The position numbers were made by a program, and so were the translations under genes. Below, one piece after another: positions 14,227 through 32,175 of a DNA stretch of 64,000 bases. Position 1 is the stretch's first letter. Each line of letters begins with the position of its first letter. The notes under the pieces are model-generated. The model was not told the DNA's origin, did no database searches, and worked only from the letters and a program-made list of their open reading frames with translations. The DNA comes from Candidatus Woesearchaeota archaeon (GTDB lineage Archaea > Nanobdellota > Nanobdellia > Woesearchaeales > GW2011-AR9). The stretch is from the NCBI GenBank assembly GCA_018696595.1, contig JABHQW010000008.1, positions 64,001-128,000 of the forward strand. The letters run 5' to 3'.

Positions 14227-15876
14227 TTATTTTTTATCTCTTTTTGCTATTATGGCATTAATTCTTTTATAATCTTCAAATGTATGAATTTCAGTCCAAC
14301 CTTTATTGACTTCTAAACAATCAACTTTGTGTCCTTGCTCAATTAACTTTTGAATAGCATAAGTAAAATCTTTGTTTTTCATTTCTTCATAATTCTCAGA
14401 ATAGATTTGTTTTAGTAACTCGGTACCTTGTCCCGAAAACATTGCCATGCCAATAAATTCAAAATTTGCTTCATCCGGATCTAAATGTGAACCAATTTTA
14501 ACAATTTCATTATGGTCATCAAAAGTTAATGATCTTTCACCTAGATAGGGGTCTCTTTTACCAACAACAAGATCTAACTTTTTATTATACCGATTAGCAT
14601 TTAATTTATATGAAGAATCAATCACTAAAGTAATATCTCCTTCTTTCTTAATTAATCTTTCAACAATGTCCTTATCAAAAAGAAGGTCAGAATAAAGCAT
14701 TAGAATTTTTCCGTTCATTTTATCTTTAGCAGTCATGATTGAATGTAACGCTTTGGTGTTTTCATATTCAGAGTTATGATACTTATTAATTGCAGGAAGA
14801 TTAATTTTTTCCCCACAATAGCCAGTAACTACACTAATATCATTAATCTTAAGAGAATTAAGAATCTCAATATTTCTTTGAATAATTGGTTTGCCATTAA
14901 TATCAAGTAAACAAAGAGGGGTATCTTTTAGGTATACATCATTGAGCTTAGGATCTATTGGCTTACCAGCGGCAGGAATAATAACTTTAATCTCTTCAAA
15001 GTCTCCTTTAACATATTTCGTTTCATGGTCCTTCATTTCAAAAGTACCTTGAAGTTCAAACAATTCTTTTACTGGAATCAATTTTTCTGAGATTGTATGA
15101 ATCCCTCCTTGTTCTTTTATTTCCTTAAGTGTTTCTTTAATAGAAGTTACTGCAGATCTAATCACATGATTAGCATAAATAACCATCTTAACTTTAGGGT
15201 GATTTTTTATTTTATCCTCAGTCAAAGTGTAATAATTTGTAGGAACAATGACGATTGGAATATCTTCTTTCCACTCTTCAATAAACCTAATAACTTCTGC
15301 AGGATCACTTTGTTTAGAATGAATCATAATTGCATCTGCCCCTGCCTCAACATAAGCTTTGGCTCTTTTTTTTGCTTCTTCATGACCCCATCCAGCAATG
15401 AGGGCTTCAACACGAGCAATAACCATGAAATCATCATCTCGTTGAGCATTTTTAGCAGCCATAATCTTTCCAGAGAACTCAGCAATAGATGCTAATTCTT
15501 GTTTCCCTCCAACTAAAAGGCTATTCTGTTTTGGAAACTTTTTATCTTCCATAATTACTCCTGCAATTCCGGCTGCCTCAAATTTTTGAACCATCCGAAT
15601 TACGTTAATAGAATTACCATAACCTTGATCAACATCAACAACAACGGGAATCGTAACTGCATCATTCATAGAAACTGCCGCATCTAAATAGTCTGTCATA
15701 GTGAGAATATTAGCATCTGGAACAGCATGTGACGCCGAAACTTCTAAAGAAGAAGCCCAAACTCCTTCAAAGCCTGCTTTCTCGATTAATTTCGCAGTCA
15801 AACCATTATGAGCCCCAACTAAACGAAAGAACCCAGGAAGATTAAATAATTCACGCAATTTTTTTGATTTTTCCAT
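14227..15876 (-). CDS. pepM: Phosphoenolpyruvate mutase fused to a C-terminal sugar-phosphate nucleotidyltransferase-like domain
   Basis: GAHNGLTAK, DVDQGYG, the diagnostic EDKKFPKQNS (EDKx5NS) and ARVEALIAG motifs. C-terminal VIIPAAG...P.CLLDINGKPII...YSDLLFD is an NTP-transferase fold. Confidence 0.92.
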   Translation of the reverse strand: MEKSKKLRELFNLPGFFRLVGAHNGLTAKLIEKAGFEGVWASSLEVSASHAVPDANILTMTDYLDAAVSMNDAVTIPVVVDVDQGYGNSINVIRMVQKFEAAGIAGVIMEDKKFPKQNSLLVGGKQELASIAEFSGKIMAAKNAQRDDDFMVIARVEALIAGWGHEEAKKRAKAYVEAGADAIMIHSKQSDPAEVIRFIEEWKEDIPIVIVPTNYYTLTEDKIKNHPKVKMVIYANHVIRSAVTSIKETLKEIKEQGGIHTISEKLIPVKELFELQGTFEMKDHETKYVKGDFEEIKVIIPAAGKPIDPKLNDVYLKDTPLCLLDINGKPIIQRNIEILNSLKINDISVVTGYCGEKINLPAINKYHNSEYENTKALHSIMTAKDKMNGKILMLYSDLLFDKDIVERLIKKEGDITLVIDSSYKLNANRYNKKLDLVVGKRDPYLGERSLTFDDHNEIVKIGSHLDPDEANFEFIGMAMFSGQGTELLKQIYSENYEEMKNKDFTYAIQKLIEQGHKVDCLEVNKGWTEIHTFEDYKRINAIIAKRDKK

Positions 15877-16009
15877 AATTTCACCTAATGCAAAAGCAGA
15901 ATTGAAAACTTATAAAACTTATGAATTTGTCTTATTAATTAAGACTATTAATTAAAATATTAAATGAAAGTCTTCCCAAAAAATAACAAAAATAACGTTA
16001 ATCTTTACT

Positions 16010-16025
16010 CCATAGAATATATAAA
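16010..16025 (+). promoter_or_regulatory. BRE/TATA promoter of the GT4 gene at 16048; identical 16-mer to 21198-21213
   Basis: CCATAGAATATATAAA ending about 23 nt before the ATG. Confidence 0.55.
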
Positions 16026-16047
16026 GGGACTACCTTAAATCAAATTT

Positions 16048-17103
16048 ATGAAAATCTTATTAGTCCATGAATTATTTATGCCCGACCAAGTTGGAGGGGG
16101 CGAAGTTTTAGTTTATGAATTAGCAAAAGGACTAATTAAGAAAGGTCACGAAGTCAAAGTCTTTACAACTGGAAAGCCAGAAATTAAACAGTATGAGAAT
16201 ATCCCAACAGTTAGAATAAATATCAACAGATATTTGTTTAATTTTTCATTTCTAAAAATAAAGAAATTAGCTAAAGATTATGATATCATTCAATCTTTTA
16301 GTTATAATGCTGCCTTCCCATCATATTTAGCTAGCAAACTTGGAAAAAAGCCAGTTATTTGTACCATCTTGGGAGTATACGGAAAAACTTGGAAGAAATT
16401 AAGAAAATTAAGTTTCTTTTGGAGAATGATGGAAAAAGTACAACTTAACAGAAAATTTAATGCCACTGTTTTCTTAAGCCCTCTCTCTCGTGAAATTGGT
16501 CATGAGATTGGGATGAAGATGGCCCCAAATTTTATAATTCCTTCAGGAGTTAATTTATCTAACACCCATCCCAATCTAAAAAAGGAGAAGTTTGTTCTTT
16601 TTGTAGGGAGGCTTTCAAAACAAAAAGGATTAGATTTACTTATTGATACAGCAGTTTTACTTCCAGAAATTAAGTTTGTTTTAGTAGGTGAAGGACCAGA
16701 AAAACAAAAGTTGCAACAAAAAGCAACGAAAAATGTTAGTTTTCTTCCTCCACAATACGGAGACAAATTGTTCAATCTATTTGGAAAAGCTCAGATTTTT
16801 TGTTTACCTTCTTACGCAGAAGGATTTCCAGTTGTTATAGTAGAAGCCATGGCCTCCGGTTGTGCCATTGTTTCAACTTTAGATTATCCTTATCATGGCC
16901 AGTACGTACCAAATAGGTGTCCGAACGAACTAGCCACTACAATTGAGAAATTGTATAATAATGAAAAATTATTACAGAAATATTCCAATAGCAATATTAA
17001 AGATTCTCGAGATTATACTTGGAATAACTTCGTTAATAAAACGGAACAAGTTTATCATTGGGTTCTAAATCAGAAAACATCAGAAAAAGAGATTGAAGAT
17101 TAA
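16048..17103 (+). CDS. GT4 family glycosyltransferase
   Basis: VGGGEV, FVGRLSKQKG and EGFPVVIVE motifs. Confidence 0.85.
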   Translation: MKILLVHELFMPDQVGGGEVLVYELAKGLIKKGHEVKVFTTGKPEIKQYENIPTVRININRYLFNFSFLKIKKLAKDYDIIQSFSYNAAFPSYLASKLGKKPVICTILGVYGKTWKKLRKLSFFWRMMEKVQLNRKFNATVFLSPLSREIGHEIGMKMAPNFIIPSGVNLSNTHPNLKKEKFVLFVGRLSKQKGLDLLIDTAVLLPEIKFVLVGEGPEKQKLQQKATKNVSFLPPQYGDKLFNLFGKAQIFCLPSYAEGFPVVIVEAMASGCAIVSTLDYPYHGQYVPNRCPNELATTIEKLYNNEKLLQKYSNSNIKDSRDYTWNNFVNKTEQVYHWVLNQKTSEKEIED

Positions 17104-17186
17104 TGCACAAGAATTATAAATGAATTATAACCATTAACTACCTATTAATTTAAAAAAATTAACGAGAATGGATTAATTAATTGAAA

Positions 17187-18308
17187 ATGATAAACCCAGC
17201 ACAATTTTACGAACTTTTACAAACTAAAGAACTAACTATGTTTACCGGGGTGCCTGATTCTACCTTAAAACAATTATGTGCTTACATCACAGATCATGTG
17301 CCTCCAGAAAGAAATATTATAACTGCAAATGAAGGTAATGCAATTGGTTTAGCAAGTGGGTATTACTTAAGCACAAACAACCCTGCCATCGTTTACATGC
17401 AAAATTCGGGATTGGGAAATTGTGTTAATCCCTTAACTTCTTTAACTGATGAAGATGTTTATTCTATTCCAATGTTATTGATTATCGGCTGGAGAGGCGA
17501 ACCAGGAAAAAAAGATGAACCGCAACATGTAAGAATGGGACAAATAACTCTGGAGATGTTGGATGTTCTAAAAATACCTTATTCTATTATTCCTGATACA
17601 ATTGAAGAAACAGAAATAGAGGTTAGTAAAGCTGTTGTTCATATGAACAATCATAAAACACCTTATGCTCTTGTTGTAAGAAAAGGAACTTTCACGGAAC
17701 ATAAATTACAAAATACAAAAACAACAAATTATCCCCTTAATCGCGAACAAGCAATAAGGACCCTTGTTCCGTTATTAGAAGAAGATGCTATTATAGTTTC
17801 AACCACTGGAAAAACATCAAGAGAATTATTTGAATTTAGAGAAGAACTTCAACAAGGACACGAAAGAGATTTCTTAACTGTTGGTTCAATGGGCCATTCA
17901 TCTTCAATTACTTTAGGAGTCGCCTTACAAAAACCAAAAAAGAAAGTATACTGTTTTGATGGTGATGGTGCGCTAATAATGCACATGGGTGCCTTATCAA
18001 CAATTGGCCAGTTACAACCAAAGAATCTGTGTCATATTGTATTGAATAATTTTGCACATGATTCGGTCGGGGGACAACCAACTGCTGCAGACAATATTGA
18101 TATTCCGCAAGTTGCTCAAGCTAACGGATATAAGAAAGTGTTCTCGGCTCAAAGCGAAGAAGAGATTAGAGCTAAAATAAAAGAAATCCAACAACTAGAA
18201 GGGCCAACATTATTAGAAATTAAAGTAAACAAAGGGGCAAGAAAAGAATTAGGAAGACCCACTACAACACCAAAAGAGAACAAATCTGAATTGATGAAGT
18301 ATTTATAA
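17187..18308 (+). CDS. ppd: Phosphonopyruvate decarboxylase (ThDP-dependent)
   Basis: FTGVPDSTLK, ANEGNAIG, YMQNSGLGN, GWRGEPG..DEPQH and GDGALIMHMG...NN motifs. ATG 17187 preferred over TTG 17181. Confidence 0.92.
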   Translation: MINPAQFYELLQTKELTMFTGVPDSTLKQLCAYITDHVPPERNIITANEGNAIGLASGYYLSTNNPAIVYMQNSGLGNCVNPLTSLTDEDVYSIPMLLIIGWRGEPGKKDEPQHVRMGQITLEMLDVLKIPYSIIPDTIEETEIEVSKAVVHMNNHKTPYALVVRKGTFTEHKLQNTKTTNYPLNREQAIRTLVPLLEEDAIIVSTTGKTSRELFEFREELQQGHERDFLTVGSMGHSSSITLGVALQKPKKKVYCFDGDGALIMHMGALSTIGQLQPKNLCHIVLNNFAHDSVGGQPTAADNIDIPQVAQANGYKKVFSAQSEEEIRAKIKEIQQLEGPTLLEIKVNKGARKELGRPTTTPKENKSELMKYL

Positions 18309-18390: not shown

Positions 18391-19452
18391 TTAATTATCT
18401 TCCCAATCCTTTTTTGGAATTCTCCAGTCTTTTCCATAAACAAATTCGAGATGTTTTTCAGGATTAAAAGGGGCATGATACTCTTTCCCATAAAAATCTA
18501 TTTTTCCTAATTGACTATAATGTTCTCTTAAAAACTTCCACTCAATGATTCTACAATCTTTTAGTGAAACTTTTTCCCATAATAATTGAATTAATTTCCC
18601 TTTATAAGGAATAAAAGTAAATATAAATATCACTACATTAAAAAAACCTTTTAAAAACCAAGAAGGGATTCTTGAATCTTGTAGCTCTCCACCATGCCTT
18701 CTTATTAAAGTAATAAATGTATTTATTATCATCCTTCGCTTTTTTATGCCATCTCTAGCTGCCAACAACAACCAACCCAATAACGCAGTAATTTTTGTTT
18801 TTTTCTTTAAACTTTTTGTTTGAAAAAAAACTAAATAGTCCTTTTTTTTCCTAAGAATATGAATATTAATATGTAATGAACCTTTCTTTCTAAATGTAAT
18901 CATTCCACGATCAGCAAACCAACATACTTCAAACCCCTGATCTGATAGCTTATTAAGAGCATCTAGTAATGTATTTATATTAATTTCTTCCCTCACCATA
19001 CTAGTATCAATATCACAATCCCAAGATAATATTTTCTTATCCCTAACTGCTCCAAGAAGGGTACCACAATCTAATCTCCAAATTAAGTTATGTTCTTCAA
19101 ATACCTCTTTTATTTCTTCTAACGCTTTCACTGTTCCTTTTTCATGTGGGTTTTTTTCTTTTGAAGAAATTGTGGGCGTGTTCTTTCTAGAAATAACTTT
19201 TTCATTTAACTCCATTTGTATTTTTTGATTAATACTTTTATCTTTTATATTTCCAATTTTAGTTAAGTGTTTCCTAAAAGGACCGAGATTTGTCCTAAAT
19301 ATTCTACAATTTAACCAAAGGTATCCTTTCTCTTTTGTAATAGTATACACATTTTCTCTGAAAGGGTCTAATGGTGGTGTAAACCGAGTTGTTTTTACTA
19401 TATCGCCAACTTTAAAAATTGTTTTTGTCATTTTCTTTATTATTCTCCACAT
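18391..19452 (-). CDS. LicD-family nucleotidyltransferase-fold phospho-headgroup transferase with N-terminal extension
   Basis: LDCGTLLGAVRD...WDCDID and C-terminal P...E.HLEFVYG.DW.IP LicD motifs. The true start may be ATG 19431. Confidence 0.8.
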   Translation of the reverse strand: MWRIIKKMTKTIFKVGDIVKTTRFTPPLDPFRENVYTITKEKGYLWLNCRIFRTNLGPFRKHLTKIGNIKDKSINQKIQMELNEKVISRKNTPTISSKEKNPHEKGTVKALEEIKEVFEEHNLIWRLDCGTLLGAVRDKKILSWDCDIDTSMVREEININTLLDALNKLSDQGFEVCWFADRGMITFRKKGSLHINIHILRKKKDYLVFFQTKSLKKKTKITALLGWLLLAARDGIKKRRMIINTFITLIRRHGGELQDSRIPSWFLKGFFNVVIFIFTFIPYKGKLIQLLWEKVSLKDCRIIEWKFLREHYSQLGKIDFYGKEYHAPFNPEKHLEFVYGKDWRIPKKDWEDN

Positions 19453-19498: not shown

Positions 19499-19502
19499 TA
19501 AA

Positions 19503-21032
19503 TTATGTTTGTTTTATCCCCACAAAACCTATTCTTTCACCATACATCGCTTTTGCCCGAATTGGATCTCTTTTAAGTAACAAATGATTAAGATCAAAGT
19601 TTTGTTTTTCTACCCAACATTCAAACTCTCCTGCACTTTTAAAACCGTCAACAGTTATATGGGAGTTTCTGAAAGTACCACTTTTTTTTACTTCTCCATC
19701 CCACCATAAATTTTCTTTTGTAACTTGTCGATAAAGCTCTGTTCCAGGAAGGGGATTCACAATGGCAACAGAATAACTATCTGCCCCACAACTAGCAGCA
19801 AACTTAATTGTTTCTTCCCTTTCTTCTCTTGTTTCGCCTGGAAAACCAACCATCCAAAAAGTATGAGTATACAACCCGGCATCAATAGCAGTTCTAATTG
19901 TTTGAGGAATAAGTTCTAAATCCAACCTTTTATTGGCCTGATCTAAAGTTTTTTGCACACCACTTTCACATGCTAAAGTGACTTGATAGCAACCCGAATC
20001 TGCCATTTTTTCAAATAATTCCTGATGCTTACCCTGGTGATAATCTACTCTGATTCCATTCGGCGGGCACCAAGGAATATTCAAGGGTTTCATTAGATCA
20101 CATAATTCATTTAATTTTGAAAGGTCAGATGTTAGAGTATCGTCTTCAAACTGAACTTCTTGAATACCATGATTTTCAATAGCGTCTTTTATTTCTGCAA
20201 CAATTTCTTGAGGGCTTCTCCACCTAACTTTTCTTCCCCAAGTAACGGGAGTAGTACAATAAGTACAACGTTCCGGACATCCCCTAGAAGCCATAACATT
20301 CAATACCCTTTTTCTTTCAGTATCTGCATTATGAAATAAACCAACATTAAAGTACCCTTCCATATTCATAAGATGCCTAGCGGGAGAAGGTAAATCTTGG
20401 AGATTAAGTGTTTCTCCAGATAAAGGATTAATTACTATTTTACCTGCTTCGGATGAAGAATTTTCTCTATGAACTAAACCGGGAATCAAACTATAATCAC
20501 CACCAGTTAATAAACAATCAATTAAATGTGCAAATCTCAGTTCACTTTCTCCAACCATTGCAAAATCAATATTTTGATTATCCATGAAAGCCAATTCTTT
20601 TTCTAGATTTGATTCTTGGTTTCTAGGATCATTGGCATAAAGATAATCTGACACACTATTAGTGATATAGTTTCCACCTACAATAACTGGGAGATCTCTT
20701 TTAACCTCTTTTGTAATCCGAGCTAAGGCATGAGAGCCTTGAACAAGATTAGAAAAGAGTACAGAAATCCCAACAATGTCTGGATTAATTTCTGAGATAT
20801 ATTTAGCAATATCAGTATCTGATTCTCCCACAATAACTATTCCCTTCTCCCCGGAGGATTCAGAATGGTGATAGCCTTCTAATGCAGTATCACGAACATA
20901 AACGTCGTGGCCTTCTTTTTCAAGAACTGCCGCCAAATAACCCAAACCCAAAGGAGGTTGTATTCGGTTAACCCCTCCTTCAATGCCCCTGATATTTGGA
21001 GAGAATAACAAAATCCTACTTTTATTTACCAT
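19503..21032 (-). CDS. B12-binding-domain radical SAM protein
   Basis: N-terminal PPLGLGYLAA...VGIS...VGG B12-binding domain, SRGCPERCTYC (CxxxCxxC), FEDD and ESG motifs. Confidence 0.85.
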   Translation of the reverse strand: MVNKSRILLFSPNIRGIEGGVNRIQPPLGLGYLAAVLEKEGHDVYVRDTALEGYHHSESSGEKGIVIVGESDTDIAKYISEINPDIVGISVLFSNLVQGSHALARITKEVKRDLPVIVGGNYITNSVSDYLYANDPRNQESNLEKELAFMDNQNIDFAMVGESELRFAHLIDCLLTGGDYSLIPGLVHRENSSSEAGKIVINPLSGETLNLQDLPSPARHLMNMEGYFNVGLFHNADTERKRVLNVMASRGCPERCTYCTTPVTWGRKVRWRSPQEIVAEIKDAIENHGIQEVQFEDDTLTSDLSKLNELCDLMKPLNIPWCPPNGIRVDYHQGKHQELFEKMADSGCYQVTLACESGVQKTLDQANKRLDLELIPQTIRTAIDAGLYTHTFWMVGFPGETREEREETIKFAASCGADSYSVAIVNPLPGTELYRQVTKENLWWDGEVKKSGTFRNSHITVDGFKSAGEFECWVEKQNFDLNHLLLKRDPIRAKAMYGERIGFVGIKQT

Positions 21033-21197
21033 AAGTAATCTTCCTCTAAATCAATATCTAATAATTGTATTTTTTCGCATCAAGGGTCTTTTATAAAAGT
21101 TATGAATATGTAATGCAGTCAAAATCCTTTTATAAAGAACCCTAATGAATTAAATGTGGCCAAATCCACATTAGAATTATAAAAATGAATCGAAGAA

Positions 21198-21213
21198 CCA
21201 TAGAATATATAAA
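21198..21213 (+). promoter_or_regulatory. BRE/TATA promoter of the four-domain phosphonate gene; identical 16-mer to 16010-16025
   Basis: CCATAGAATATATAAA ending about 25 nt before ATG 21238. Confidence 0.55.
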
Positions 21214-24200: not shown

Positions 24201-24732
24201 AATGGCAGGGGTTAGTTTTGTTATTTGTAGTAAGAAACAACTTGAAAGAATTAAAGAATACCCACGCCGATCTTTTTATTTAAGCTTATATGACCAATAC
24301 GAATATTTCATTAAAAATTACCAGATGAGGTTTACCCCCCCAGTACAAACATTATATGCTCTTAAAAAAGCAATTGCAGAATTTTTAGAGGAAGGATATG
24401 AAAACCGAGTTGCAAGATATACTCAGAGTTGGAAAGTTCTAAGAGCAGGAGTTCAAGAATTAGGATTTAAGATATTAACTCAACCTGAAAATGAGTCCAA
24501 CCTTTTAATTACTTTACTTAATCCAGAACACCCTAATTTTAATTTTAATATTCTTCATGACAAATTATTTGAAAAAGGATTTACTATTTATCCTGGAAAA
24601 GTGGGAAAAGTTAATTCATTTCGGTTATCTAATATGGGTGCCATTGATGAAAAGGATATTAGCGAATTCTTAGTAACATTTGAAGGTGTATTAAATGAAA
24701 TGGGAACAATTGGACAGCAAAAACCAACATAA
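21238..24732 (+). CDS. Four-domain phosphonate enzyme: Fe-dependent alcohol dehydrogenase (phosphonoacetaldehyde reductase-like) + HxGH cytidylyltransferase + LicC/PntC-like nucleotidyltransferase + 2-aminoethylphosphonate transaminase
   Basis: aa 1-385: GGGSVID, PTTSGTGSE, HAISY..PHG. aa ~393-530: DSIHHGH, HGDDW, PYTKGIST. aa ~535-780: ILAAGMGTRL...PKCL...ESDLLY...EID. aa ~795-1160: LLNPGP, HHETTTG, STSNKCIQG (PLP lysine), RFTPP. Confidence 0.9.
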   Translation: MSLAKQREYFGIGKIDKLKEILALERAKKVFLVTTKRSFSSSSAKERIAPQLKDYQVTIFNEFSQNPKLEDIKRGIKIFKESNSDLIIAIGGGSVIDMAKSINVLSAQTLAPEIYIIEKVPFEKKGCPLVAIPTTSGTGSEATHFAVLYINKSKYSLAHEEYILPNYAIIDPELTFSLPKAITATTGIDVLSQSIESYWSVNSTEEAKAYAQEAIKLVLKDLKTAVNYPCKEARVAMAKAANLSGKAINIAKSTAPHAISYPFTSYFNIPHGHATGLTLGPILVFNANINETNCTDPRGAEYVRLTINKIISFFGSTCAADTCKKIQYLMRDIGLETNIKRLGIDSEEKVNLIIEKGFNPDRIKNNPKRIEPEQLRKILNEISQETEIKPEKMETVYIGMVADSIHHGHINIISEARKLGDVIVGLVTDDAAQSYKRRPILSFSDRARIIKNIKGVTKIVPQNTLDYVPNIEKYKPSIIMHGDDWKKGSQRIIRERALNAVEKYGGRIIDLPYTKGISTTEFIEKVKSCSLNKKNTTQAIILAAGMGTRLRPLTEETPKCLIKVNNKTLLEYSLDCLKENGIQEVIIVIGYRGELIKQKIGNDYHGLKVAYIENLRFSETGSMYSLSLAKKEIKNDILVLESDLLYESSAINTILNSNHRNTMVISKLLHSGDDVYICTNEKEEIINLGKEISEEEKKRAKGAMIGISKYSGEFLAELFKKAEEDYEKGEVNYHYEECVFATSHENNPVKAIFCPELHWIEIDNENDLKKATEVTYPKIRNLENNKQKSSSIKRNILLNPGPATTTDTVKYAQIVPDICPREKEFGDVMKYINNNLIEIAGGNTEEDVCVLFGGSGTAAMDATINSVVPPDKKILVINNGAYGERIAKIARAYSLGCIELKFEWDALPDLKIIEDQLNENPEISCVAMIHHETTTGLLNQVKEIGELVKNHNKVFIVDTISSFAGIPMNIKEFNIDFMMSTSNKCIQGMAGVSFVICSKKQLERIKEYPRRSFYLSLYDQYEYFIKNYQMRFTPPVQTLYALKKAIAEFLEEGYENRVARYTQSWKVLRAGVQELGFKILTQPENESNLLITLLNPEHPNFNFNILHDKLFEKGFTIYPGKVGKVNSFRLSNMGAIDEKDISEFLVTFEGVLNEMGTIGQQKPT

Positions 24733-24756: not shown

Positions 24757-25503
24757 ATGATTACTAGAAATCAACAGAAAGAAAAATATGAAACTGATTT
24801 AAGATACCATTCAGATTCGGACAACTTAAATCAAACGTTTGATAACCGCTATTCATTACGTAATAATTGGGGATTATATTTTGAATTAATAAAATTTAAA
24901 GAGATGGTTAAGCTCTTAAATAAAAGTAAAGTTAGGTTAAAGAATAAAAAAATCTTAGATTTAGGTTGTCACCGTGGCTTTACTTCTAACCTTTTAGCAC
25001 AATTAAAAGGATCTTCTGAAAACATTTATGGGGCAGATTTTATCAATTCTTTTGTTGAGCAAGCCCAAGAAATTAATCCTGGTGTTAAATTCTTTCAACA
25101 TGATGTTTATAATGAGCTACCTTTTGAGAACTCTTATTTTGATTTAGTTACATTAATTTACTTGTTTAATGCCCTTCCCTCCCAAGACCAACAAGAAGTT
25201 GTTAAGAATATTTCCAAAAAAATAAAAGTAGGAGGTCATATCTTATTCTTTGACTTGTTTGAATCCAGAATGTCACGAGTAACACAAAGATTAGCTCACC
25301 TTAACAAGAGATATACTCCTTTGCCACATTTTAATGATAAAATTATTAAAAAATTGTTCCCGGACTTTAAGATAATCCAATCTAAAAAAATAATTAATTT
25401 GTTAACTTATCGAACAATTGGGTTTTCGTATGGTTTAGCAGAATTTTTAGATAAAATGTTACCATGCGAGTATTATATCACATTATTAAGAAAAATAAAA
25501 TAA
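24757..25503 (+). CDS. Class I SAM-dependent methyltransferase
   Basis: ILDLGCHRG motif I, YGAD, LPFENSYFD and GGHILFFD. Confidence 0.8.
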   Translation: MITRNQQKEKYETDLRYHSDSDNLNQTFDNRYSLRNNWGLYFELIKFKEMVKLLNKSKVRLKNKKILDLGCHRGFTSNLLAQLKGSSENIYGADFINSFVEQAQEINPGVKFFQHDVYNELPFENSYFDLVTLIYLFNALPSQDQQEVVKNISKKIKVGGHILFFDLFESRMSRVTQRLAHLNKRYTPLPHFNDKIIKKLFPDFKIIQSKKIINLLTYRTIGFSYGLAEFLDKMLPCEYYITLLRKIK

Positions 25504-25504: not shown

Positions 25505-26155
25505 ATGGGCGAAAAAAGAATAAAAGAAAATGTGGAATTTTGGGATTGGGTATTCAGATTTGTATCTAAACCAGTCACACACTTTTTTGTTAAGTTCACT
25601 AAGATAACCCCTAACCAAATCACCATATTAAGTTTTATTTTAGGCTTATTAGCCGCGGGACTAATTTTAATGGGAGATTATAATTACTTAGTTGTTGCAG
25701 GCGTCTTAGTATTAATTTTCATGGTCTTAGATAATGTTGACGGGGAGATTGCTAGAATAACTAAGAAAACAAGTAAGTTAGGCCATTGGTTAGATGGAGT
25801 TGTGGGTTTTATTATAAATGAAGCATTAATTTTAGCCATGGCATTAAGTATTGGTAGCCCATTATCTCTATCCGTTGGATTATTAACAATGATTGCTTTT
25901 CCAATGCAATATTTATTAATATTCTTTTACAAAGCAGAGATTGTTAAAGAGAATGCCCCAATTACAATTGGATCTGGAAGCCTAATCAATAAAATAAAGT
26001 ATTTATATGGTTCAACCTTCTTTCAATTTACAGTTGCGATAGGTTGCTTTTTCAATAAGCTACTATGGGTTTTAATCTTCTTTGCAGTCATCGGAAACTT
26101 ATTCTGGATGGGGACATTGTTTGTCCAATATATCAACTTAAAACGAAAGTTTTAA
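25505..26155 (+). CDS. CDP-alcohol phosphotransferase family membrane protein (fourth Asp replaced by Gly)
   Basis: ITPNQIT and LDNVDGEIAR-x8-GHWLDGVVG. Confidence 0.8.
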   Translation: MGEKRIKENVEFWDWVFRFVSKPVTHFFVKFTKITPNQITILSFILGLLAAGLILMGDYNYLVVAGVLVLIFMVLDNVDGEIARITKKTSKLGHWLDGVVGFIINEALILAMALSIGSPLSLSVGLLTMIAFPMQYLLIFFYKAEIVKENAPITIGSGSLINKIKYLYGSTFFQFTVAIGCFFNKLLWVLIFFAVIGNLFWMGTLFVQYINLKRKF

Positions 26156-26180: not shown

Positions 26181-27170
26181 ATGGTAAACAATTTGTTGAG
26201 TCATTATAAAGTCTCCCCAAAATTAGAAGTGAAATTAACAGCAAGTTTTCCTTTATCTCGGAGTACAGGAATTCAACAAGCTTATAATTCTCAAGAACCA
26301 GATTGGGACTTATTATTTACGCATTGGGGTAAAGAGATTATATATATTAATCCTAATATCCCCCAATTACAGTGGAGAGAGATATGCTTAGCAACCCATT
26401 GGAATCAATTTGAAGAAGCAGTTAAAAAAAATGATAAATTAGTACTAGATGGGAGAAAAATCGATGGTTTTTCAATTCAAGCTCAACGTAAAGGGGCTTT
26501 AAAAGATTTAAGTTTTTTATCTACTGCAAATTATTGTTTTACTCTTACCGATGATGACCAACATATTTTAATGGGAGTTAGGGGAGGAAGTGATAATGTA
26601 GGACAAGCAGTAACAATGCCATTGGGGGTTGTTTCTTATCCTTCAGAACCTGACCCTAATAATTTAGATCCAATTACGGCTTCAGTTTACTCCGAAGCAA
26701 ATGAAGAAGGGGGCATTTTACCAAATGAATATTCTTCATTAAATTGTATTGGAACCTTGCGACAAGAGCAATGTTCTACACCAGTAAATAATCTTATTTG
26801 GATTGGAAGATTAAAGATTACAGGTGAAGAAATTATAGAGAGACACAAAGTAGCCATTGAATTATATAATAAATTTGGAAATGATTCTGAGAACATATTA
26901 AAGGCACGAATGGAGTTGAGAAAAAGATTTTTATTTAATCCAAGATTTCCAAAAGATGCTTGGGAAAATTCAAGATTAAATTTATTTTCTAATGATCCCG
27001 AGAAAATGGTTGCAGATCTCAGTTATTTAATTGACCAAGGAAAAGAAATTAAACATGGATTATATGGTGCTTTAGCCTTATATATTTTAAACCAACATGG
27101 AGATAAATATTATAGTCAATTAATGAATATACCACAATTTAAAGAAAAGATTCATGATCAAAAATTATAG
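26181..27170 (+). CDS. Hypothetical protein with a possible degenerate NUDIX-like motif
   Basis: Long open frame in an apparent operon. HILMGVRGG...MPLGVV...VYSEANEEGGI resembles a NUDIX box. Confidence 0.4.
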   Translation: MVNNLLSHYKVSPKLEVKLTASFPLSRSTGIQQAYNSQEPDWDLLFTHWGKEIIYINPNIPQLQWREICLATHWNQFEEAVKKNDKLVLDGRKIDGFSIQAQRKGALKDLSFLSTANYCFTLTDDDQHILMGVRGGSDNVGQAVTMPLGVVSYPSEPDPNNLDPITASVYSEANEEGGILPNEYSSLNCIGTLRQEQCSTPVNNLIWIGRLKITGEEIIERHKVAIELYNKFGNDSENILKARMELRKRFLFNPRFPKDAWENSRLNLFSNDPEKMVADLSYLIDQGKEIKHGLYGALALYILNQHGDKYYSQLMNIPQFKEKIHDQKL

Positions 27171-27257: not shown

Positions 27258-27962
27258 ATGAAAGCATTAATTACTGCGGCCGGAATGGGTACGAGACTGG
27301 GTAATATTACTAAAGACACAAACAAGTGTATCTTAAATGTCGGAAACAAACCATTACTTCTCCATTCAGTCGAGATTCTCAAGAATGTAGGAATTGATGA
27401 CATATATGTAATTATTGGCCATCACGGAGAGAAAATTAAACAACTTCTTGGAGATAAAGTTAATTATATCTATAATCCTGATTATGCCACTACTAGTATT
27501 CTAGGTTCTATTGTTCTTGCTAAAGAACATTTATTCCAGTCAGAATTTGTTTTTCTAACCGGAGATTCTTTGCTCCATCCCGAACTCATCAAGGGCTTAT
27601 TAGAACCAAGTCAAGATGTTCTTGTTTCTATTGAGCTTAAAAAATGTAATGAAGAAGATATGAAAGTTGTTTTAGAGAACCATAATATTAAAGAAATAAG
27701 TAAAACAATATCTTTGGATCAGGCCCAGGGAGAATATACTAGCCTTACTAGATTCCCAAAAGAGTCTTCCACTGTTTTTTTTAATGAAGTTGAAAAAGCA
27801 ATAAACAATCAGAATTGTAAAACTTATGTTGCTGACATCCTTTTAAATTTACAAAATTTAGGGTTTAATCTTAAACCAATATATACCAATAAACCAAGAA
27901 TTGAAATTGATTTCTTAGAAGACTTAGAAAAAGCCCAAGCATTGTACAAACAATATTTTTGA
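27258..27962 (+). CDS. LicC/PntC-like phospho(no)-headgroup cytidylyltransferase (NTP transferase)
   Basis: LITAAGMGTRL, NKCIL, YNPDY, TGDS, DMKV and EIDFLEDL motifs. Confidence 0.8.
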   Translation: MKALITAAGMGTRLGNITKDTNKCILNVGNKPLLLHSVEILKNVGIDDIYVIIGHHGEKIKQLLGDKVNYIYNPDYATTSILGSIVLAKEHLFQSEFVFLTGDSLLHPELIKGLLEPSQDVLVSIELKKCNEEDMKVVLENHNIKEISKTISLDQAQGEYTSLTRFPKESSTVFFNEVEKAINNQNCKTYVADILLNLQNLGFNLKPIYTNKPRIEIDFLEDLEKAQALYKQYF

Positions 27963-28032: not shown

Positions 28033-28761
28033 TTAAAATTTCTTTTCTTCAACACCTAACCGATCACAAATTTGACTAATACTAATTACTTTCAAATCAT
28101 ATTGATCTGCTAAGCCCCTAAGTTGTGCAGGGGAAGCCATTTTGTAAGGGTCATCAGGATGTAATATTTCCATATCAACTACCACTGGAGGATTGATTCC
28201 AGCTAACTTCATCAATTCAATTCCCGATTCTGTATGACCTTGTCTAGCATAAAGTCCCTGAGGATTACCTGCAATTGGAACAAGATGTCCTGGTCTAACC
28301 AAGTCTTCTGGGGTTGATGCTCTTTCTTCTAATTCTCCGGAAACTAATCGTGAATAATCAAAAGGCCTACCGTTCTCTCCAGTTTGATAAGGAACAAATC
28401 GACCGCCAAGAATATTCGCAGTTTGTGCTCTTTCTGCAGCAGAACAACCAGAATGACCATACAATGTATCGGTAGTTAAACGAAAATTAGTTTGACTACT
28501 TTCTTGGTTATCACTTGCATCTACTTGACCAGGCAACCCAAACTGAGTTGCATAATCTTCAGGCATAAAAATAGCAATAAATGCCCCTTTAGCATTATCT
28601 AAAACAAATTTCATTGTTGTGGGTGTTATTTTAGCAGCAGAAACAAGAAAATCTCCTTCTCCTTCCCTACCTGGATTATCCATTAAAATAATTGGTTTGC
28701 CTTGTTGGATATCAATTAAAGCATCATCCAAACTATCTAATTTTACGCCATAATTATTCAT
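28033..28761 (-). CDS. ribB: 3,4-dihydroxy-2-butanone-4-phosphate synthase (RibB)-like protein, divergent
   Basis: D...REGEGDF, SGCSAAER, RPGHLVP and RQGHTE motifs. ATG 28761 has a GAGGT ribosome-binding site. Confidence 0.75.
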   Translation of the reverse strand: MNNYGVKLDSLDDALIDIQQGKPIILMDNPGREGEGDFLVSAAKITPTTMKFVLDNAKGAFIAIFMPEDYATQFGLPGQVDASDNQESSQTNFRLTTDTLYGHSGCSAAERAQTANILGGRFVPYQTGENGRPFDYSRLVSGELEERASTPEDLVRPGHLVPIAGNPQGLYARQGHTESGIELMKLAGINPPVVVDMEILHPDDPYKMASPAQLRGLADQYDLKVISISQICDRLGVEEKKF

Positions 28762-28929
28762 TTTATTTACCTCTTCACATTTTTTAAAAATGTTAAATTT
28801 ATAAAGTAATCTCAAATTCTGATATATAAGTTTTATGCACTACAAATCAGACTACGAAAACCTAAATGATTTAAAACCCACATTCCAAAATAGAGATTAA
28901 TTTAACAGAAAGACAAGAGATCCAAAAAA

Positions 28930-29691
28930 ATGAAAACCAAATATCCATTTAAAACAATAACAAAAACTGAAGAGCAACTTCATTCTTGGACTTATGTATT
29001 TCTACTTAAGTATCCAACAATCTTATTAACCTGGCTATTTGCAAATTTTACTAACTTCTCTCCAAACTTAGTTTCTTTCCTAGGGCTGATTCCTTCTTTT
29101 ATTAGTGCTTATTTTTATGTTAATGGGAACTTACTATTTGGTGCTCTTTTTTATCTCTTGGCTTGGCTTCTTGATGGAGTTGATGGAAGATTAGCAAGAG
29201 TCAAAAGCCTAGGGTCAAAGTACGGGGCATTTTATGACAATTATGTTGGCCAAATTGGTTTTATTATAATGATCATGGGATTTTTTTATGGTATAGCTAG
29301 AATAAAACAAAATTCTTTATGGTTGTTGTTGGGCATTCTAGTTTACTTTCTGGTTACTTTCCGCAGCTTGATTGCTTTAAAAGTTAAAACCTTGATGGGA
29401 AATGAATATCGTGTCAACTTAGATGAAGTAAATGTTGAAGAAGCAAGTATTAAAGAAACAAAAGGATTATGGGGATTAGCTGTAAGATTACAAAATAAAC
29501 TGAACCAAAAAGGTTTAGTTGAACCATTTAACCTAATTGATATGATTGTATTGATTTTTATTATTGGCCCAATTGCGGAATTAATTTTATCTGGTTCTCT
29601 AATATATGTGATAATATTTGCATTGATTATGATTATAATAAAAGAAATCATCTGGTTTCTCTATTATAGAAAGATTTTAAAAGATAGGTGA
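28930..29691 (+). CDS. CDP-alcohol phosphotransferase family membrane protein (fourth Asp replaced by Gly)
   Basis: FSPNLVS and LDGVDGRLAR-x8-GAFYDNYVG. Confidence 0.8.
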   Translation: MKTKYPFKTITKTEEQLHSWTYVFLLKYPTILLTWLFANFTNFSPNLVSFLGLIPSFISAYFYVNGNLLFGALFYLLAWLLDGVDGRLARVKSLGSKYGAFYDNYVGQIGFIIMIMGFFYGIARIKQNSLWLLLGILVYFLVTFRSLIALKVKTLMGNEYRVNLDEVNVEEASIKETKGLWGLAVRLQNKLNQKGLVEPFNLIDMIVLIFIIGPIAELILSGSLIYVIIFALIMIIIKEIIWFLYYRKILKDR

Positions 29692-29699
29692 AATTAAAA

Positions 29700-30836
29700 A
29701 TGAATATAATTCTTCTTACTGATGGATTCATGCGGAATAAAAAAGAATCAATATATCTTACATTAACTAGTTTAAGTAAAGAATTAATTAATCAAGGACA
29801 TCAAGTAGTAATTATTGCTAATGGAAATAATGATCTTCCCCGGATTAATATTGAAGAGAGAGTAACAATCGTTAGGCCGCCAAAAATCTTCAGTTTTTGT
29901 AGAATAATGAGGATAATTATTATTGGTCCTTTTATTAGAGTCTTACAAAAAAAACAGAAAAGAAAATACCAAATCATTAATAATTTTAGTTCTGCTCCAA
30001 TCTTAGTATTGAGAGCAGTATTTGCAAAATTGTTTTTGCCAAATATTAAAATTATTCAAAGCATAAAGTCTTATTCAAAAATGAATCTTGGAAACCATTT
30101 TTTTCATTTACTTAATTTTGCAAATTTAGTAACTATACCAACAAAAGTATTTGCAAAAAAGCTGGTTAGAAAAGGAGTAAAAGAAGAGAAAATCGAGGTC
30201 ATGAGATCCACCATTAATACCAATAAATTTTATCCAAAGAATGGAGACAAACTTAAGCAGGAATATGGCTATAACAATAAAAATGTGATTTTTTATTATG
30301 GGGCATTATGGAAAGAAAAAGGAGTGAAATATCTTGTTGAAGCCATCCCCGAAATTAAAAAGGTAGAACCACAAACAATGTTCATTTTTGCACCACGAGA
30401 AAGAAAAGAATTTTTATATCAACATAAGAAGTTACTAAATAAAATTAAAAAAATACCTGATACAACTATTTTAATTAACAAAATTAAAATTGAAGATTAT
30501 GTCAATATGGCCCAGATTTTAGTACTCCCTTATGCCAGCATTATTGGAACAGAAGGTAATCCTTCCTGCTTACTAGAAGCAATGGCTTGTAAAACTGCCG
30601 TTGTTACAAGTAATCTCCCTGAGTTGAAGGAAATTGTGCAACATGAACAAGATGTTCTTTTAGCAGAACCCGAAAATCCCGCCTCCATTGCTAAAAATGT
30701 AATCCGATTATTAAATGATAAACAGTTACAAGAAAGATTAACTGAAAATGCATATAAGAAATCAAAACAATTTGATGTAAGAATCATTGCCCAACAATAT
30801 TTAAAGTTATATCAAAATGTTTTAAACAAGAAGTAA
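29700..30836 (+). CDS. GT4 family glycosyltransferase
   Basis: YYGALWKEKG and EGNPSCLLE (EX7E). ATG 29700 follows a GGTGA ribosome-binding site. Confidence 0.8.
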   Translation: MNIILLTDGFMRNKKESIYLTLTSLSKELINQGHQVVIIANGNNDLPRINIEERVTIVRPPKIFSFCRIMRIIIIGPFIRVLQKKQKRKYQIINNFSSAPILVLRAVFAKLFLPNIKIIQSIKSYSKMNLGNHFFHLLNFANLVTIPTKVFAKKLVRKGVKEEKIEVMRSTINTNKFYPKNGDKLKQEYGYNNKNVIFYYGALWKEKGVKYLVEAIPEIKKVEPQTMFIFAPRERKEFLYQHKKLLNKIKKIPDTTILINKIKIEDYVNMAQILVLPYASIIGTEGNPSCLLEAMACKTAVVTSNLPELKEIVQHEQDVLLAEPENPASIAKNVIRLLNDKQLQERLTENAYKKSKQFDVRIIAQQYLKLYQNVLNKK

Positions 30837-30870
30837 TAATGATTAAATTATGAATAAACTCTGATTTGTT

Positions 30871-32175
30871 TTATTTATTCAAGAAAGAAAGAGTTTTTGT
30901 GACTATTGCATTTAGATTTAACTCTTTATTATCAGTCTTCACATTATTTGCTTCAAAATTATTAGATAACTGTTCAAATAAACCCATCTGTCTACTTAAT
31001 TCTTCAGGAGACTGGTCCCTTTTTCGGTTATAAAGAGTATTGGGATCATTGTAAAGATAAAAAGTTAAAGAAGGTTTAGGGAAAAAACTAAGAAAAAATC
31101 TTTTCAGAAAAAAAGGAACATGTTTCATCAAAAGAATATCGCTGCAGTATCTGTCTGTGACCACAATAAAGCGTTTTCTCTTTGGTAAAACAATAAACAA
31201 ATATCGAATTAATAAATCAAGAGTATAAATTGGAGAAGACAATGAATAAATAATTTTCTTTAAGTTCTTGCCAACTTTCTTTTTCTTTTCAACCCCTTTG
31301 TAAATATTACCAATCTTTTTAATGGGGATTATATTCTTCTTTCCCCGTCCAACATAAATTAAATTGACAGGATAACCATTATTCTTTAATATGCTTACCA
31401 ATCCTTCTGTCATTGTTGATTTTCCAGATCCATCTGGCCCAATTAAAGAGATCAATGGTTTGCTAGGCATCAATAGATTAAGTAAAGGAACCTTTCTTAA
31501 AGGACAATATTTTCTACTAAAAAACCACCGAGCAGATAATTTAGTAAAAGTCCAAGCCCTTTTAAAATCTTTAAAAGCATAATAACTCGCTAAGAATTTC
31601 ATTCTTCTTTCAATCTTCTCAAATGTTCCTTCTTGTACATTCTTTAATAAAAATAAAGCAATCTTTTTATTAAATATTTGAGCCAGGTTAGATTTAATAT
31701 AACTAAAATTAAGATCTTCCTGAGATAAACTCACCAGTTCCTCTTTATACTTATGTTTAAAAAATCGTTTTCCCAAAATAGAATGACATAAATAATGAAG
31801 ATAAGAATCATTAACAGAAAGTATTGGAAAGAAATACTTGTTTTCTATTCCTGATAAAATCTGATTCATCTTTAGATACACAATGTCGTTCCAGTAGATT
31901 CCTCCTTTTTGTAAGTCAAAAGAAAAAGTTTTTTTATTCTCTGGAAAATATTTCCAAAAACCTTGGTGTTTTAAAGAAAAGTTCTTACTAGATTTATTAA
32001 ACCCTTGATTAAGCAATATTTCTTCGGCGTTATTCCAATTACTATCATCAACAGAAATATCCAAATCAGTCCCCAGATCCCCTTGATTTAAGAGAAAAGC
32101 ATAATTACGTAAAACACAATACTTGATGTTATTCTGATTAAATACTTGTAATATTTCTTTTATTTTTGGAATCAT
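30871..32175 (-). CDS. Nucleotidyltransferase-fold domain fused to a thymidylate/NMP-kinase-like P-loop domain
   Basis: N-terminal YCVLRNY...GTDLDI (DxD). C-terminal GPDGSGKST, TDRY and PKPSLTFYL. Confidence 0.7.
   Translation of the reverse strand: MIPKIKEILQVFNQNNIKYCVLRNYAFLLNQGDLGTDLDISVDDSNWNNAEEILLNQGFNKSSKNFSLKHQGFWKYFPENKKTFSFDLQKGGIYWNDIVYLKMNQILSGIENKYFFPILSVNDSYLHYLCHSILGKRFFKHKYKEELVSLSQEDLNFSYIKSNLAQIFNKKIALFLLKNVQEGTFEKIERRMKFLASYYAFKDFKRAWTFTKLSARWFFSRKYCPLRKVPLLNLLMPSKPLISLIGPDGSGKSTMTEGLVSILKNNGYPVNLIYVGRGKKNIIPIKKIGNIYKGVEKKKKVGKNLKKIIYSLSSPIYTLDLLIRYLFIVLPKRKRFIVVTDRYCSDILLMKHVPFFLKRFFLSFFPKPSLTFYLYNDPNTLYNRKRDQSPEELSRQMGLFEQLSNNFEANNVKTDNKELNLNAIVTKTLSFLNK

Follow-up and report, generated by a model that had tools for sequence, protein, structure and literature searches.

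The window analysed here is a 64,000-nucleotide stretch of a Candidatus Woesearchaeota genome (contig JABHQW010000008.1, positions 64,001 to 128,000), and between its positions 14227 and 32175 it carries a cluster of genes predicted to make phosphonates, activate them with CMP and attach them to surface molecules. We consider it likely that this cassette is of the phosphonyl-tailoring kind known from bacteria and that it occupies the variable part of a surface-glycan island linked to the oligosaccharyltransferase AglB. The host is a widespread, indeed cosmopolitan, marine archaeon of DPANN type from a phylum with small genomes. Gene and domain calls were made from a listing of open reading frames (ORFs) together with Pfam and NCBIfam scans, and every domain that an initial annotation of this stretch had listed between 14227 and 32175 was found there. 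Its count of four nucleotidyltransferase domains also holds, although the one fused to phosphoenolpyruvate (PEP) mutase falls below the Pfam cut-off (24.7 versus 27 bits). What we describe below are gene and domain identities, intact motifs, a real gene fusion, and conservation and context in relatives.

The gene at 14227..15876 (minus strand) encodes a PEP mutase (PepM; residues 1-292) followed by a divergent LicC/MobA-like nucleotidyltransferase domain (residues ~296-545). PepM scores marginally over the cut-off of the TIGR02320 equivalog (319.8 bits, cut-off 319.55) and does not reach that of TIGR02321, the model for phosphonopyruvate hydrolase (PPH; 317 bits, cut-off 374.4). Residue-level alignment to solved structures gave the motif as MEDKKFPKQNSL, that is, EDKx5NS with Asn, at a position that is Asn in the solved PepMs 5UNC and 1M1B and Thr in the PPH 2DUA. 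Because its scores against the two NCBIfam models are nearly equal, we considered whether the enzyme might itself be a PPH; the residue at the Asn/Thr position, together with the adjacent phosphonopyruvate decarboxylase (Ppd) gene, rules this out. The best PDB match is 5UNC (PepM, 313 bits), followed by 2DUA. Compared with the PepMs of metagenome-assembled genomes (MAGs) of the same family, the whole protein is 73-75% identical and its PepM domain 80-87%. The Ppd gene (17181..18308, plus strand; TIGR03297, 507 bits, cut-off 312.5) lies 1.3 kb from PepM, and its product is 78-90% identical to the Ppd of two cassettes of the family that are built for 2-aminoethylphosphonate (AEP; L003 and L004). 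The presence in one cluster of Ppd and of a PepM with Asn in its EDKx5NS motif points to formation of the C-P bond de novo, as the initial annotation had proposed.

We note that the bacterial tree neighbours with EDKx5TS form a separate group. Four bacterial loci (L015-L018) have stand-alone homologues of 290 aa with the motif EDKKFPKDTS (Thr), against EDKKFPKQNS in the window; these are probable phosphonopyruvate hydrolases, and in our sample, which is biased, they branch beside the clade of PepMs fused to a nucleotidyltransferase (PepM-NT).

The central enzyme of the cluster is a protein of 1164 aa (P0002; 21238-24732, plus strand) in which four domains are joined: an iron-containing alcohol dehydrogenase (Fe-ADH; residues 1-385), a PF01467 CTP_transf_like domain (~395-527), a PF00483/PF12804 NTP_transferase domain (538-~790) and an AEP transaminase (AEPT; 793-1156). 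The Fe-ADH domain (21238..22395; Pfam, 145 bits) is a candidate phosphonoacetaldehyde reductase of group III (the Fe-ADH family) that would yield 2-hydroxyethylphosphonate (HEP). It is ~50% identical to the stand-alone dehydrogenases of HEP-type cassettes and to the dehydrogenase halves of Ppd-ADH fusions, and it scores 177 bits against the curated model TIGR03405 (cut-off 424). The second domain (22411..22836) contains an HxGH motif and has as its best PDB match the cytidylyltransferase (CyTase) domain of Fom1 (5X3D; residues 395-527, E 2.2e-42), which turns 2-HEP into CMP-HEP in fosfomycin biosynthesis (PMC6697681); it is ~50% identical to the CyTase that is fused to PepM in genomes of the same family. 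The remainder of the protein (22849..24732) is of the PntC-AEPT kind, and an alignment that runs from end to end pairs residues 530-1164 of P0002 with residues 4-613 of Tde1415 (6PD1; 476 bits, E 1.4e-141), the bifunctional PntC-AEPT of Treponema denticola, for which CMP-AEP-forming activity has been measured (PMC6697681). The AEPT domain exceeds the cut-off of TIGR03301 (430 bits, cut-off 360.8), and the PntC-AEPT half, taken by itself, is 68-70% identical to two-domain proteins of the nearest relatives. P0002 should thus comprise two bifunctional modules in tandem that both start from phosphonoacetaldehyde (PnAA), one leading to CMP-HEP and the other, by way of AEP, to CMP-AEP. The initial annotation had predicted both branches as well as activation with CMP, and the domains assigned here bear this out; that the HEP half is, judged by its sequence, of the Fom1 type had been overlooked. 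We think it very likely that both CMP-AEP and CMP-HEP are made.

Both new junctions of P0002 are in frame, and at neither does the downstream domain have a start codon of its own. The CyTase-PntC junction (22819-22852) falls at a run of eight A, a potential slippage site, and the length of this run is the same in independent contigs, which indicates that the fusion is real. Specifically, 20 metagenome runs of marine or seawater origin, produced by at least 15 studies, contain the stretch at 21-25 kb, and contigs from seawater runs other than the source, which come from different studies, show 0-1 differences from the window and zero indels; one of these contigs (19717-23169) covers both new junctions and another covers 21905-23217. 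This support comes from Logan contigs, so that depth and strain variants are uninformative, and the many 'joints' in the Logan output with sides of 20-27 letters were set aside as repeats or other organisms. No RNA datasets were listed that contain the fusion region or PepM. Among 5.8 billion protein clusters (lengths 640-2037 aa) we found no other four-domain protein and none that covers more than 53% of P0002. The Fe-ADH domain of P0002 has the signature DxLxQxIE in common with the dehydrogenases of HEP-type cassettes and of Ppd-ADH fusions; the phosphonate-linked Fe-ADH clade to which it belongs (P0134-P0169, L028-L033, L037) reads DxLxQxIE, with Gln in place of the metal-ligand His of the canonical DxLxHxIE, and many of its members from bacteria of the candidate phyla radiation are fused to Ppd.

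The cluster lies, as initially annotated, in an AglB glycan island. AglB (STT3, 128 bits), fused to a parvulin peptidyl-prolyl isomerase (PPIase; Rotamase_3, 104 bits), is encoded at 6638..10015 (plus strand) and ends 4.2 kb from PepM; it is followed at 10062..12198 (plus strand) by its conserved partners, which Pfam identifies as a family 2 glycosyltransferase (GT2), a DUF2304 protein and a family 4 glycosyltransferase (GT4). This core, which includes a helix-turn-helix (HTH) gene (HTH-AglB-GT2-DUF2304-GT4), is conserved in genomes of the same genus and the same family, and its GT2, DUF2304 and GT4 proteins show 54-66% amino acid identity in five loci (L029, L032, L033, L053 and L054). In two genomes of the same genus (81-84% complete) the AglB core is retained, other genes follow it downstream, and PepM was not found, which suggests that the cassette is cargo in a variable surface-glycan island that spans ~1.6 to 55 kb of the window. 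The linkage recurs in relatives: AglB or its DUF2304 partner lies no more than ~11 kb from PepM in 9-10 of the 27 loci from the phylum, several of which end at contig ends. A survey of PepM and its co-occurrence with aglB had been suggested along with the initial annotation, and in ours, 8 of the 35 genera of the family that were searched have PepM, as do 22 of 400 other high-quality genomes sampled from throughout the phylum (5.5%), a frequency close to that reported for bacteria (PMC8942020).

Within the phylum, as surveyed with loci L055-L072, the commonest form is an HEP-type cassette composed of a Fom1-like CyTase-PepM, Ppd and Fe-ADH, and the AEP type is in the minority; among bacteria AEP dominates (56% versus 8.5% for HEP; PMC8942020). 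In the family of the host, the HEP type consists of a CyTase-PepM fusion (~440 aa), Ppd and Fe-ADH, often with a nucleotidyltransferase, a radical S-adenosylmethionine (SAM) protein of the B12-binding kind that is 48% identical to the one in the window, and a CDP-alcohol phosphotransferase (CDP-OH), while the AEP type consists of PepM-NT, Ppd and PntC-AEPT. The phylogeny of PepM, likewise proposed earlier and now built, places the PepMs of the two types in deeply separate clades (100/100 support). PepM, Ppd and PntC-AEPT of the window are 70-90% identical to those of the AEP type, and its dehydrogenase, CyTase, radical SAM protein and first CDP-OH transferase resemble those of the HEP type at ~32-50%. 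By these similarities, two cassette types that occur separately elsewhere in the family seem to have been merged in this cluster, a point that the initial annotation had missed. Among the 27 PepM loci examined, the window alone combines ADH with AEPT, and it alone has LicD.

The transferases named in the initial annotation are also present, as predicted from their domains. The gene at 18391..19452 (minus strand) encodes a LicD-family protein (39.6 versus 22.6 bits) that has the family signature GTLLGAVR...DxD, a sub-threshold match (61 bits) to an NCBIfam Mf1 cholinephosphotransferase model, and a candidate role as CMP-phosphonate:glycan transferase. Two polytopic membrane proteins of the CDP-OH family are encoded at 25505..26155 (five hydrophobic segments) and 28930..29691 (both on the plus strand), with 42.6 and 48 bits, respectively, against a Pfam cut-off of 22. 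The first has the motif DxxDGxxARx8Gx3Dx3G and the second DGVDGRLARx8Gx3Dx3G, so that in each a Gly replaces the fourth Asp of the family motif DxxDGxxARx8Gx3Dx3D. This fourth Asp is the proposed catalytic base of CDP-alcohol phosphotransferases. The CDP-OH homologues of four DPANN phosphonate cassettes (L032, L033, L005 and L038) share the Gly, which suggests a trait of a subfamily and not decay; judged by their motifs, the two proteins are variant members of the family and their mechanism is uncertain.

In or beside the cluster are three GT4s, one GT2 and a Wzx flippase. Two of the GT4 genes lie within it (16048..17103, Glycos_transf_1 and Glyco_transf_4; and 29688..30836, Pfam; both plus strand), and the Wzx/MurJ-type flippase for lipid-linked glycans is encoded at 32195..33682 (minus strand; Polysacc_synt, 90.7 bits; 15 hydrophobic segments). 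Every catalytic domain predicted here would lie on the cytoplasmic side, and this, together with the flippase, fits the modification of lipid-linked glycans before they are flipped. A precedent for a non-sugar substituent joined to an archaeal N-glycan by a phosphodiester is the N-glycan of Thermococcus, which contains myo-inositol phosphate (PMC11407970). We have good reason to expect that AEP and HEP phosphonates end up on the cell surface, be it on glycan, on lipid or on both; that the acceptor is specifically the AglB-dependent N-glycan is a tentative proposal that we hold at less than even chances. The S-layer N-glycan that the initial annotation names as an acceptor is one candidate, next to lipids and to other glycans flipped by Wzx, and its suggestion that the coat may influence encounters with hosts or phages is a conjecture.

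Two further enzymes suggest that the head groups are modified. The gene at 19503..21032 (minus strand) encodes a cobalamin-dependent (class B) radical SAM protein (B12-binding and Radical_SAM domains; CxxxCxxC) that is probably a methylase of an activated phosphonate. It has no informative PDB match, and a search of the ESM Atlas gave only generic clusters of B12 radical SAM proteins; among 8,000 candidates scored, ~1,400 homologues reached E<=1e-10, many of them marine and none with a functional name. We examined the genomic context of three close homologues. One, in a Tara gammaproteobacterium, accompanies CyTase-PepM, Ppd, Fe-ADH and a TagF-like transferase; a second, in Nitrohelix, accompanies AEPT, a CDP-OH transferase, methyltransferases and Ppd; and near the third, in an Omnitrophica genome, there are no phosphonate genes. 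Homologues also occur in the CyTase-PepM/Ppd/Fe-ADH clusters of archaea of the same family. The other enzyme is a class-I SAM methyltransferase (24757..25503, plus strand; Methyltransf_25/11) with weak PDB similarity to phosphoethanolamine N-methyltransferases (E 4e-6), and we regard it as a candidate N-methylase of AEP.

Gene fusions in other genomes connect these activities. Radical SAM proteins of the same Pfam architecture are fused to AEPT and PntC (AEPT-PntC-B12 radical SAM; P0127 and P0128) and to AEPT and a class-I methyltransferase (B12 radical SAM-AEPT-class-I methyltransferase; P0133, from a Woesearchaeota cluster that adjoins AglB); other linking fusions are Fe-ADH-LicD (P0156) and Fe-ADH-AEPT (P0130). 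The fused radical SAM domains are ~25% identical to the protein of the window where compared, and the methyltransferase domain of P0133 belongs to the same Pfam families as the gene at 24757-25503 but gave no sequence match to it at the threshold used. These fusions tie a class B radical SAM protein and a class-I methyltransferase to an activated phosphonate and raise the possibility, absent from the initial annotation, that the final head groups may be methylated derivatives instead of plain AEP and HEP. By analogy with Fom3, which methylates CMP-HEP and not free HEP (PMC8158854), the radical SAM protein would C-methylate a CMP-phosphonate. We also observe a second B12 radical SAM protein (28% identical to the first) in the same island, 10 kb downstream, in a segment (41071-45234) where its neighbours are a class-I methyltransferase, GT2s and an LPG_synthase_TM/flippase-like protein; the Nitrohelix radical SAM cluster (L035) is likewise flanked by two LPG_synthase_TM genes.

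The region downstream of the first CDP-OH gene contains two genes that the initial annotation did not list, one for a protein of 329 aa (26181..27170, plus strand) and one for a divergent RibB-like protein of the DHBP synthase family (28033..28815, minus strand). The 329-aa protein has no match in Pfam or NCBIfam; its AlphaFold2 model (pLDDT 95.5) has human NUDT22 as the best Foldseek match (E 3.7e-9), identifying a NUDT22-like Nudix fold and a candidate hydrolase of nucleotide sugars or CMP-phosphonates. Its family is rare (58 cluster representatives among 1.8 billion). In other archaea its homologues either separate AglB-PPIase from GT2-DUF2304 or have a nucleotidyltransferase and a GHMP kinase as neighbours, and in one locus (L042) the family is paired with an NTP_transf_3 nucleotidyltransferase, the domain of the next gene in the window (a stand-alone MobA/LicC-like protein; 27258..27962, plus strand; 56.8 bits). 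These two genes are probably a general nucleotide-sugar or glycan module. The idea that the 329-aa protein is a phosphonate-specific enzyme, analogous to FomD, is weakened by its homologues, which lie in AglB loci without phosphonate genes or beside a sugar nucleotidyltransferase. The RibB-like protein (Pfam, 149 bits) scores 113.6 bits against TIGR00506 (cut-off 177) and has no close homologue in 59 relatives. The genome has no member of the lumazine/riboflavin synthase family (PF00885), which rules out a part in riboflavin synthesis; one possible role of the protein is to provide a C4 ketol phosphate as precursor of a glycan substituent.

Three further genes complete the description. Upstream of PepM, a tandem double NAD-dependent epimerase/dehydratase of 673 aa, of the kind that modifies nucleotide sugars, is encoded at 12171..14192 (minus strand; two Epimerase/GDP_Man_Dehyd stretches in Pfam). 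At the other end, the gene at 30871..32175 (minus strand) encodes a protein with weak NTP_transf_5-like and P-loop, thymidylate kinase-like halves in Pfam; the former is sub-threshold (25.6 versus 31.2 bits) and would be a fifth nucleotidyltransferase-like match, and the latter is just over the Thymidylate_kin cut-off (31.0 versus 27) and far under that of the dTMP kinase model TIGR00041 (31.1 versus 83.25). Farther away, at 59477-60952 (minus strand), a 491-aa protein combines a CDP-alcohol phosphotransferase domain (94.5 bits) with a diacylglycerol-kinase catalytic domain and is possibly an enzyme of lipid salvage.

Catalytic activities, methylation chemistry and acceptor are inferred from the genes described above, and on that footing the following pathway can be proposed. 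PepM would convert PEP to phosphonopyruvate, and Ppd would decarboxylate this to PnAA and so pull the PepM reaction forward. P0002 would split the flux at PnAA, its N-terminal half leading through 2-HEP to CMP-HEP and its C-terminal half through 2-AEP to CMP-AEP. The B12 radical SAM protein would probably methylate a carbon, as Fom3 does, and the class-I methyltransferase the nitrogen of AEP. LicD and the two variant CDP-OH transferases would then move the phosphonyl group from CMP to membrane-anchored acceptors on the cytoplasmic face, the likeliest being dolichol-linked glycans that the GT2 and GT4 enzymes encoded nearby would assemble; once decorated, the glycans would be flipped by Wzx and displayed on surface proteins by AglB or another pathway. 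A bolder and rather doubtful version of this proposal is that two methylated CMP-phosphonates (2-hydroxypropyl- or 2-aminopropyl-phosphonate and/or N-methyl-AEP) are made by an uncharacterised clade of B12 radical SAM methylases with CMP-activated C2 phosphonates as substrates and installed on the AglB N-glycans of a host-attached DPANN cell, with P0002, a branch point on a single polypeptide, setting the ratio of HEP to AEP. Were it true, this would be the first phosphono-N-glycan in Archaea.

Several alternatives have to be set against a tailoring cassette of this kind, beginning with the contig itself, which might be an assembly artefact, a chimera or bacterial contamination. The genome is metagenome-assembled and one fusion junction falls at the run of eight A, but contigs from other runs cross both junctions, as described above, and a contig of run X9 (13955-15627) joins the double-epimerase gene to PepM. 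The genome (1.19 Mb, 8 contigs) is 97% complete with 0.38% contamination, GC is even across the window (0.29-0.34), and AglB shares the contig with 5S rRNA, tRNA-His, HisRS and PFOR, which are archaeal housekeeping genes; other genomes of the family show the same AglB-to-phosphonate arrangement. A chimeric or bacterial origin, which the initial annotation had named as a possible flaw, is contradicted by these findings, and we regard the chance of an artefact as negligible. The assignment to a DPANN-type archaeon stands, with a small-subunit ribosomal RNA that gives a full-length match to the archaeal model (1407 bits), genome sizes of 0.6-2.1 Mb in all 59 of the relatives searched (same family and order), and an NCBI label of Nanoarchaeota on one genome of the family (G005). 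We note in this connection that the MAGs with the closest PepM relatives (L002-L004; CAYSWQ01..., CAZQLW01..., CAZXEM01...) are publicly labelled 'uncultured Methanosarcinales archaeon'; at least one of them (L002, our genome G033, ~1.1 Mb) falls in the small-genome family of the window, so that the label looks wrong and was treated as unreliable. Another alternative is that the cell salvages or catabolises AEP from its environment, with the transaminase running in the PhnW direction, the dehydrogenase detoxifying PnAA, and no synthesis de novo. Seawater is rich in AEP (PMC9381506) and TIGR03301 spans biosynthetic and catabolic transaminases alike, but PepM and Ppd are present and look intact, the cluster has no gene for a phosphonatase (PhnX, HAD type), for PhnY/PhnZ or for C-P lyase, and the transaminase shares its polypeptide with a PntC cytidylyltransferase, the arrangement of the biosynthetic Tde1415. 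We judge salvage to be highly improbable. Somewhat less so, yet still very unlikely, is a soluble bioactive phosphonate of the fosfomycin kind, in which CMP-2-hydroxypropylphosphonate would be made, released with the Nudix protein in the place of FomD, and exported against the host or a competitor. The Fom1-type CyTase, Ppd, Fe-ADH and B12 radical SAM protein mirror the first steps towards fosfomycin (PMC8158854, PMC9088020), and a Nudix hydrolase gene is at hand; but among the ORFs at 14-33 kb no Pfam family was found that matches FomD (the CMP-HPP hydrolase, DUF402), the epoxidase Fom4 or an exporter, which argues that this is not a fosfomycin cluster, the Nudix homologues occur in AglB loci that lack phosphonate genes, and LicD, the CDP-OH transferases, the glycosyltransferases and the flippase point to attachment.

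The alternative with most in its favour, which is compatible with a role in glycan tailoring, is that the CDP-OH proteins attach AEP or HEP to membrane lipids as phosphonolipid head groups, either from CMP-AEP or CMP-HEP and archaeol or diacylglycerol, or from CDP-archaeol and the hydroxyl of HEP. Lipid head groups are the usual products of the CDP-OH family, archaetidylinositol-phosphate synthase and PIP synthase are the best, though sub-threshold, NCBIfam matches of the two proteins, and in many compact DPANN cassettes a CDP-OH transferase is the sole transferase; in ciliates, phosphonolipids are made from CMP-AEP by ethanolaminephosphotransferase-type enzymes. The genome also encodes a CDP-archaeol synthase (CarS) and four CDP-OH transferases, two of them outside the cluster, so lipid head-group chemistry is equally possible for these proteins. 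Against this, the cassette is interleaved with GT4s, LicD and Wzx inside a glycan island of ~50 kb, a CDP-OH transferase linked to CarS at another place in the genome is a more obvious candidate for lipid synthesis, and those of the cluster lack the fourth motif Asp. On balance, a mainly lipid destination by either route strikes us as unlikely. A tailoring cassette in the AglB-linked glycan island remains our preferred explanation, and several observations weigh against it or against parts of it. The genome-wide capacity for lipid head groups just described is one, and the missing Asp, which burdens the CDP-OH proteins as phosphonyl transferases too, is another. PepM exceeds its family cut-off by 0.25 bits, its clade borders phosphonopyruvate hydrolases, and the nucleotidyltransferase fused to it lacks the GxGTR signature as well as falling under the Pfam cut-off. 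The best NCBIfam matches of the radical SAM protein are P-methyltransferase families (Sden_1168 and PhpK), with scores far under cut-off (259 versus 575 and 106 versus 600 bits). Adjacency of AglB to PepM is frequent and not universal, and the genes for the Nudix, NTP_transf_3 and RibB-like proteins and for the second CDP-OH transferase may be part of some other glycan module.

A large part of the dissolved organic phosphorus in the sea is phosphonate, and the organisms that produce it are known only in part. Bacterial phosphonyl tailoring, the early Fom steps and the methylphosphonate cluster of Nitrosopumilus are already known; particular to the window are the dual-branch four-domain enzyme, the occurrence together of LicD and variant CDP-OH transferases, and the pairing of a radical SAM protein with a methyltransferase. 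In open-access papers and preprints we found neither DPANN phosphonate clusters nor phosphonate-bearing archaeal N-glycans specifically described: all that a survey of cold seeps says on the subject is that phosphonate biosynthetic gene clusters occur in six archaeal phyla, and a 2024 review of archaeal N-glycosylation makes no mention of phosphonates. By its gene content, then, the kit for phosphonate decoration in this cosmopolitan marine DPANN archaeon is complete and unusually elaborate. If the phosphonate is carried on N-glycans, it would add a new class of substituent to archaeal N-glycosylation and bear on the surface that episymbiotic archaea expose to hosts and viruses, one that resists hydrolysis and varies between strains. 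The radical SAM-AEPT-methyltransferase, AEPT-PntC-radical SAM, ADH-LicD and four-domain fusions, in turn, supply hypotheses for a large clade of B12 radical SAM proteins that we found uncharacterised in the sources searched.

The cluster shares features with several known systems. In Prochlorococcus SB, for which phosphonate surface glycoproteins have been described and a protective role against grazers or viruses proposed (bioRxiv 10.1101/2020.11.04.368217), pepM is likewise found in marine plankton at low frequency, varies between strains and is linked to glycosylation; that system is bacterial, is proposed to be O-linked and has chemical evidence, whereas the one in the window is archaeal, accompanies AglB and is described from genomic data. 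The decoration of the teichoic acids of Streptococcus pneumoniae with phosphocholine by LicC and LicD resembles it in combining a LicC-fold cytidylyltransferase with LicD for activation followed by transfer to a glycan, and the LicC-fold structure 1JYK was the third-best PDB match in the search that gave the Fom1 CyTase hit and the 16th in the search that gave the Tde1415 hit. The predicted substrate in the window, however, is a phosphonate and not phosphocholine, and the cluster has no choline kinase or transporter gene.

The methylphosphonate cluster of Nitrosopumilus maritimus (ppm, ppd, pdh, mpnS), whose product is esterified to exopolysaccharide, is likewise archaeal and has PepM, Ppd, an Fe-ADH that makes HEP (in the window, by prediction), nearby nucleotidyl- and glycosyltransferases, and a surface polymer as its presumed destination. 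Unlike that free-living ammonia oxidiser, the host here is a small-genome DPANN archaeon, and its cluster has an AEP branch, a B12 radical SAM protein, LicD and CDP-OH transferases; no dioxygenase of the MpnS/HEPD family was recognised among the cluster ORFs of at least 80 aa at 14-33 kb, the rest of the genome not having been searched; all of these ORFs have other assignments, and the single one that lacks a family has the Nudix fold. With the early fosfomycin pathway of Streptomyces wedmorensis (Fom1, a CyTase-PepM, 5X3D; Fom2, a Ppd; FomC, an Fe-ADH; and Fom3, a B12 radical SAM protein acting on CMP-HEP) the window has in common a CyTase whose best PDB match is 5X3D, Ppd, Fe-ADH and an adjacent B12 radical SAM protein, and the CyTase-PepM cassette is the commonest in its phylum. 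In the window, however, the CyTase is fused to the dehydrogenase and not to PepM, and in place of FomD and Fom4 there are transferases, which would replace release and epoxidation. Finally, the Pnt pathway of Treponema denticola, Atopobium rimae and Olsenella uli (Rice et al. 2019, PMC6697681) comprises Ppm(-NT), Ppd, AEPT, PntC (Tde1415, 6PD1/6PD2) and LicD-like transferases. The window likewise has a PepM fused to a PF12804-like nucleotidyltransferase, Ppd, a full-length Tde1415-like PntC-AEPT, and a LicD-family transferase with glycosyltransferases nearby, and in both systems activation with CMP is followed by transfer to surface polymers, a step that in the window is predicted. Unlike the Pnt systems, the cassette described here is found in an archaeon within an AglB island, fuses its PntC-AEPT further to an Fe-ADH and a Fom1-type CyTase so that HEP and AEP branches are both present, and adds a B12 radical SAM protein, a class-I methyltransferase and two CDP-OH transferases with a variant motif.

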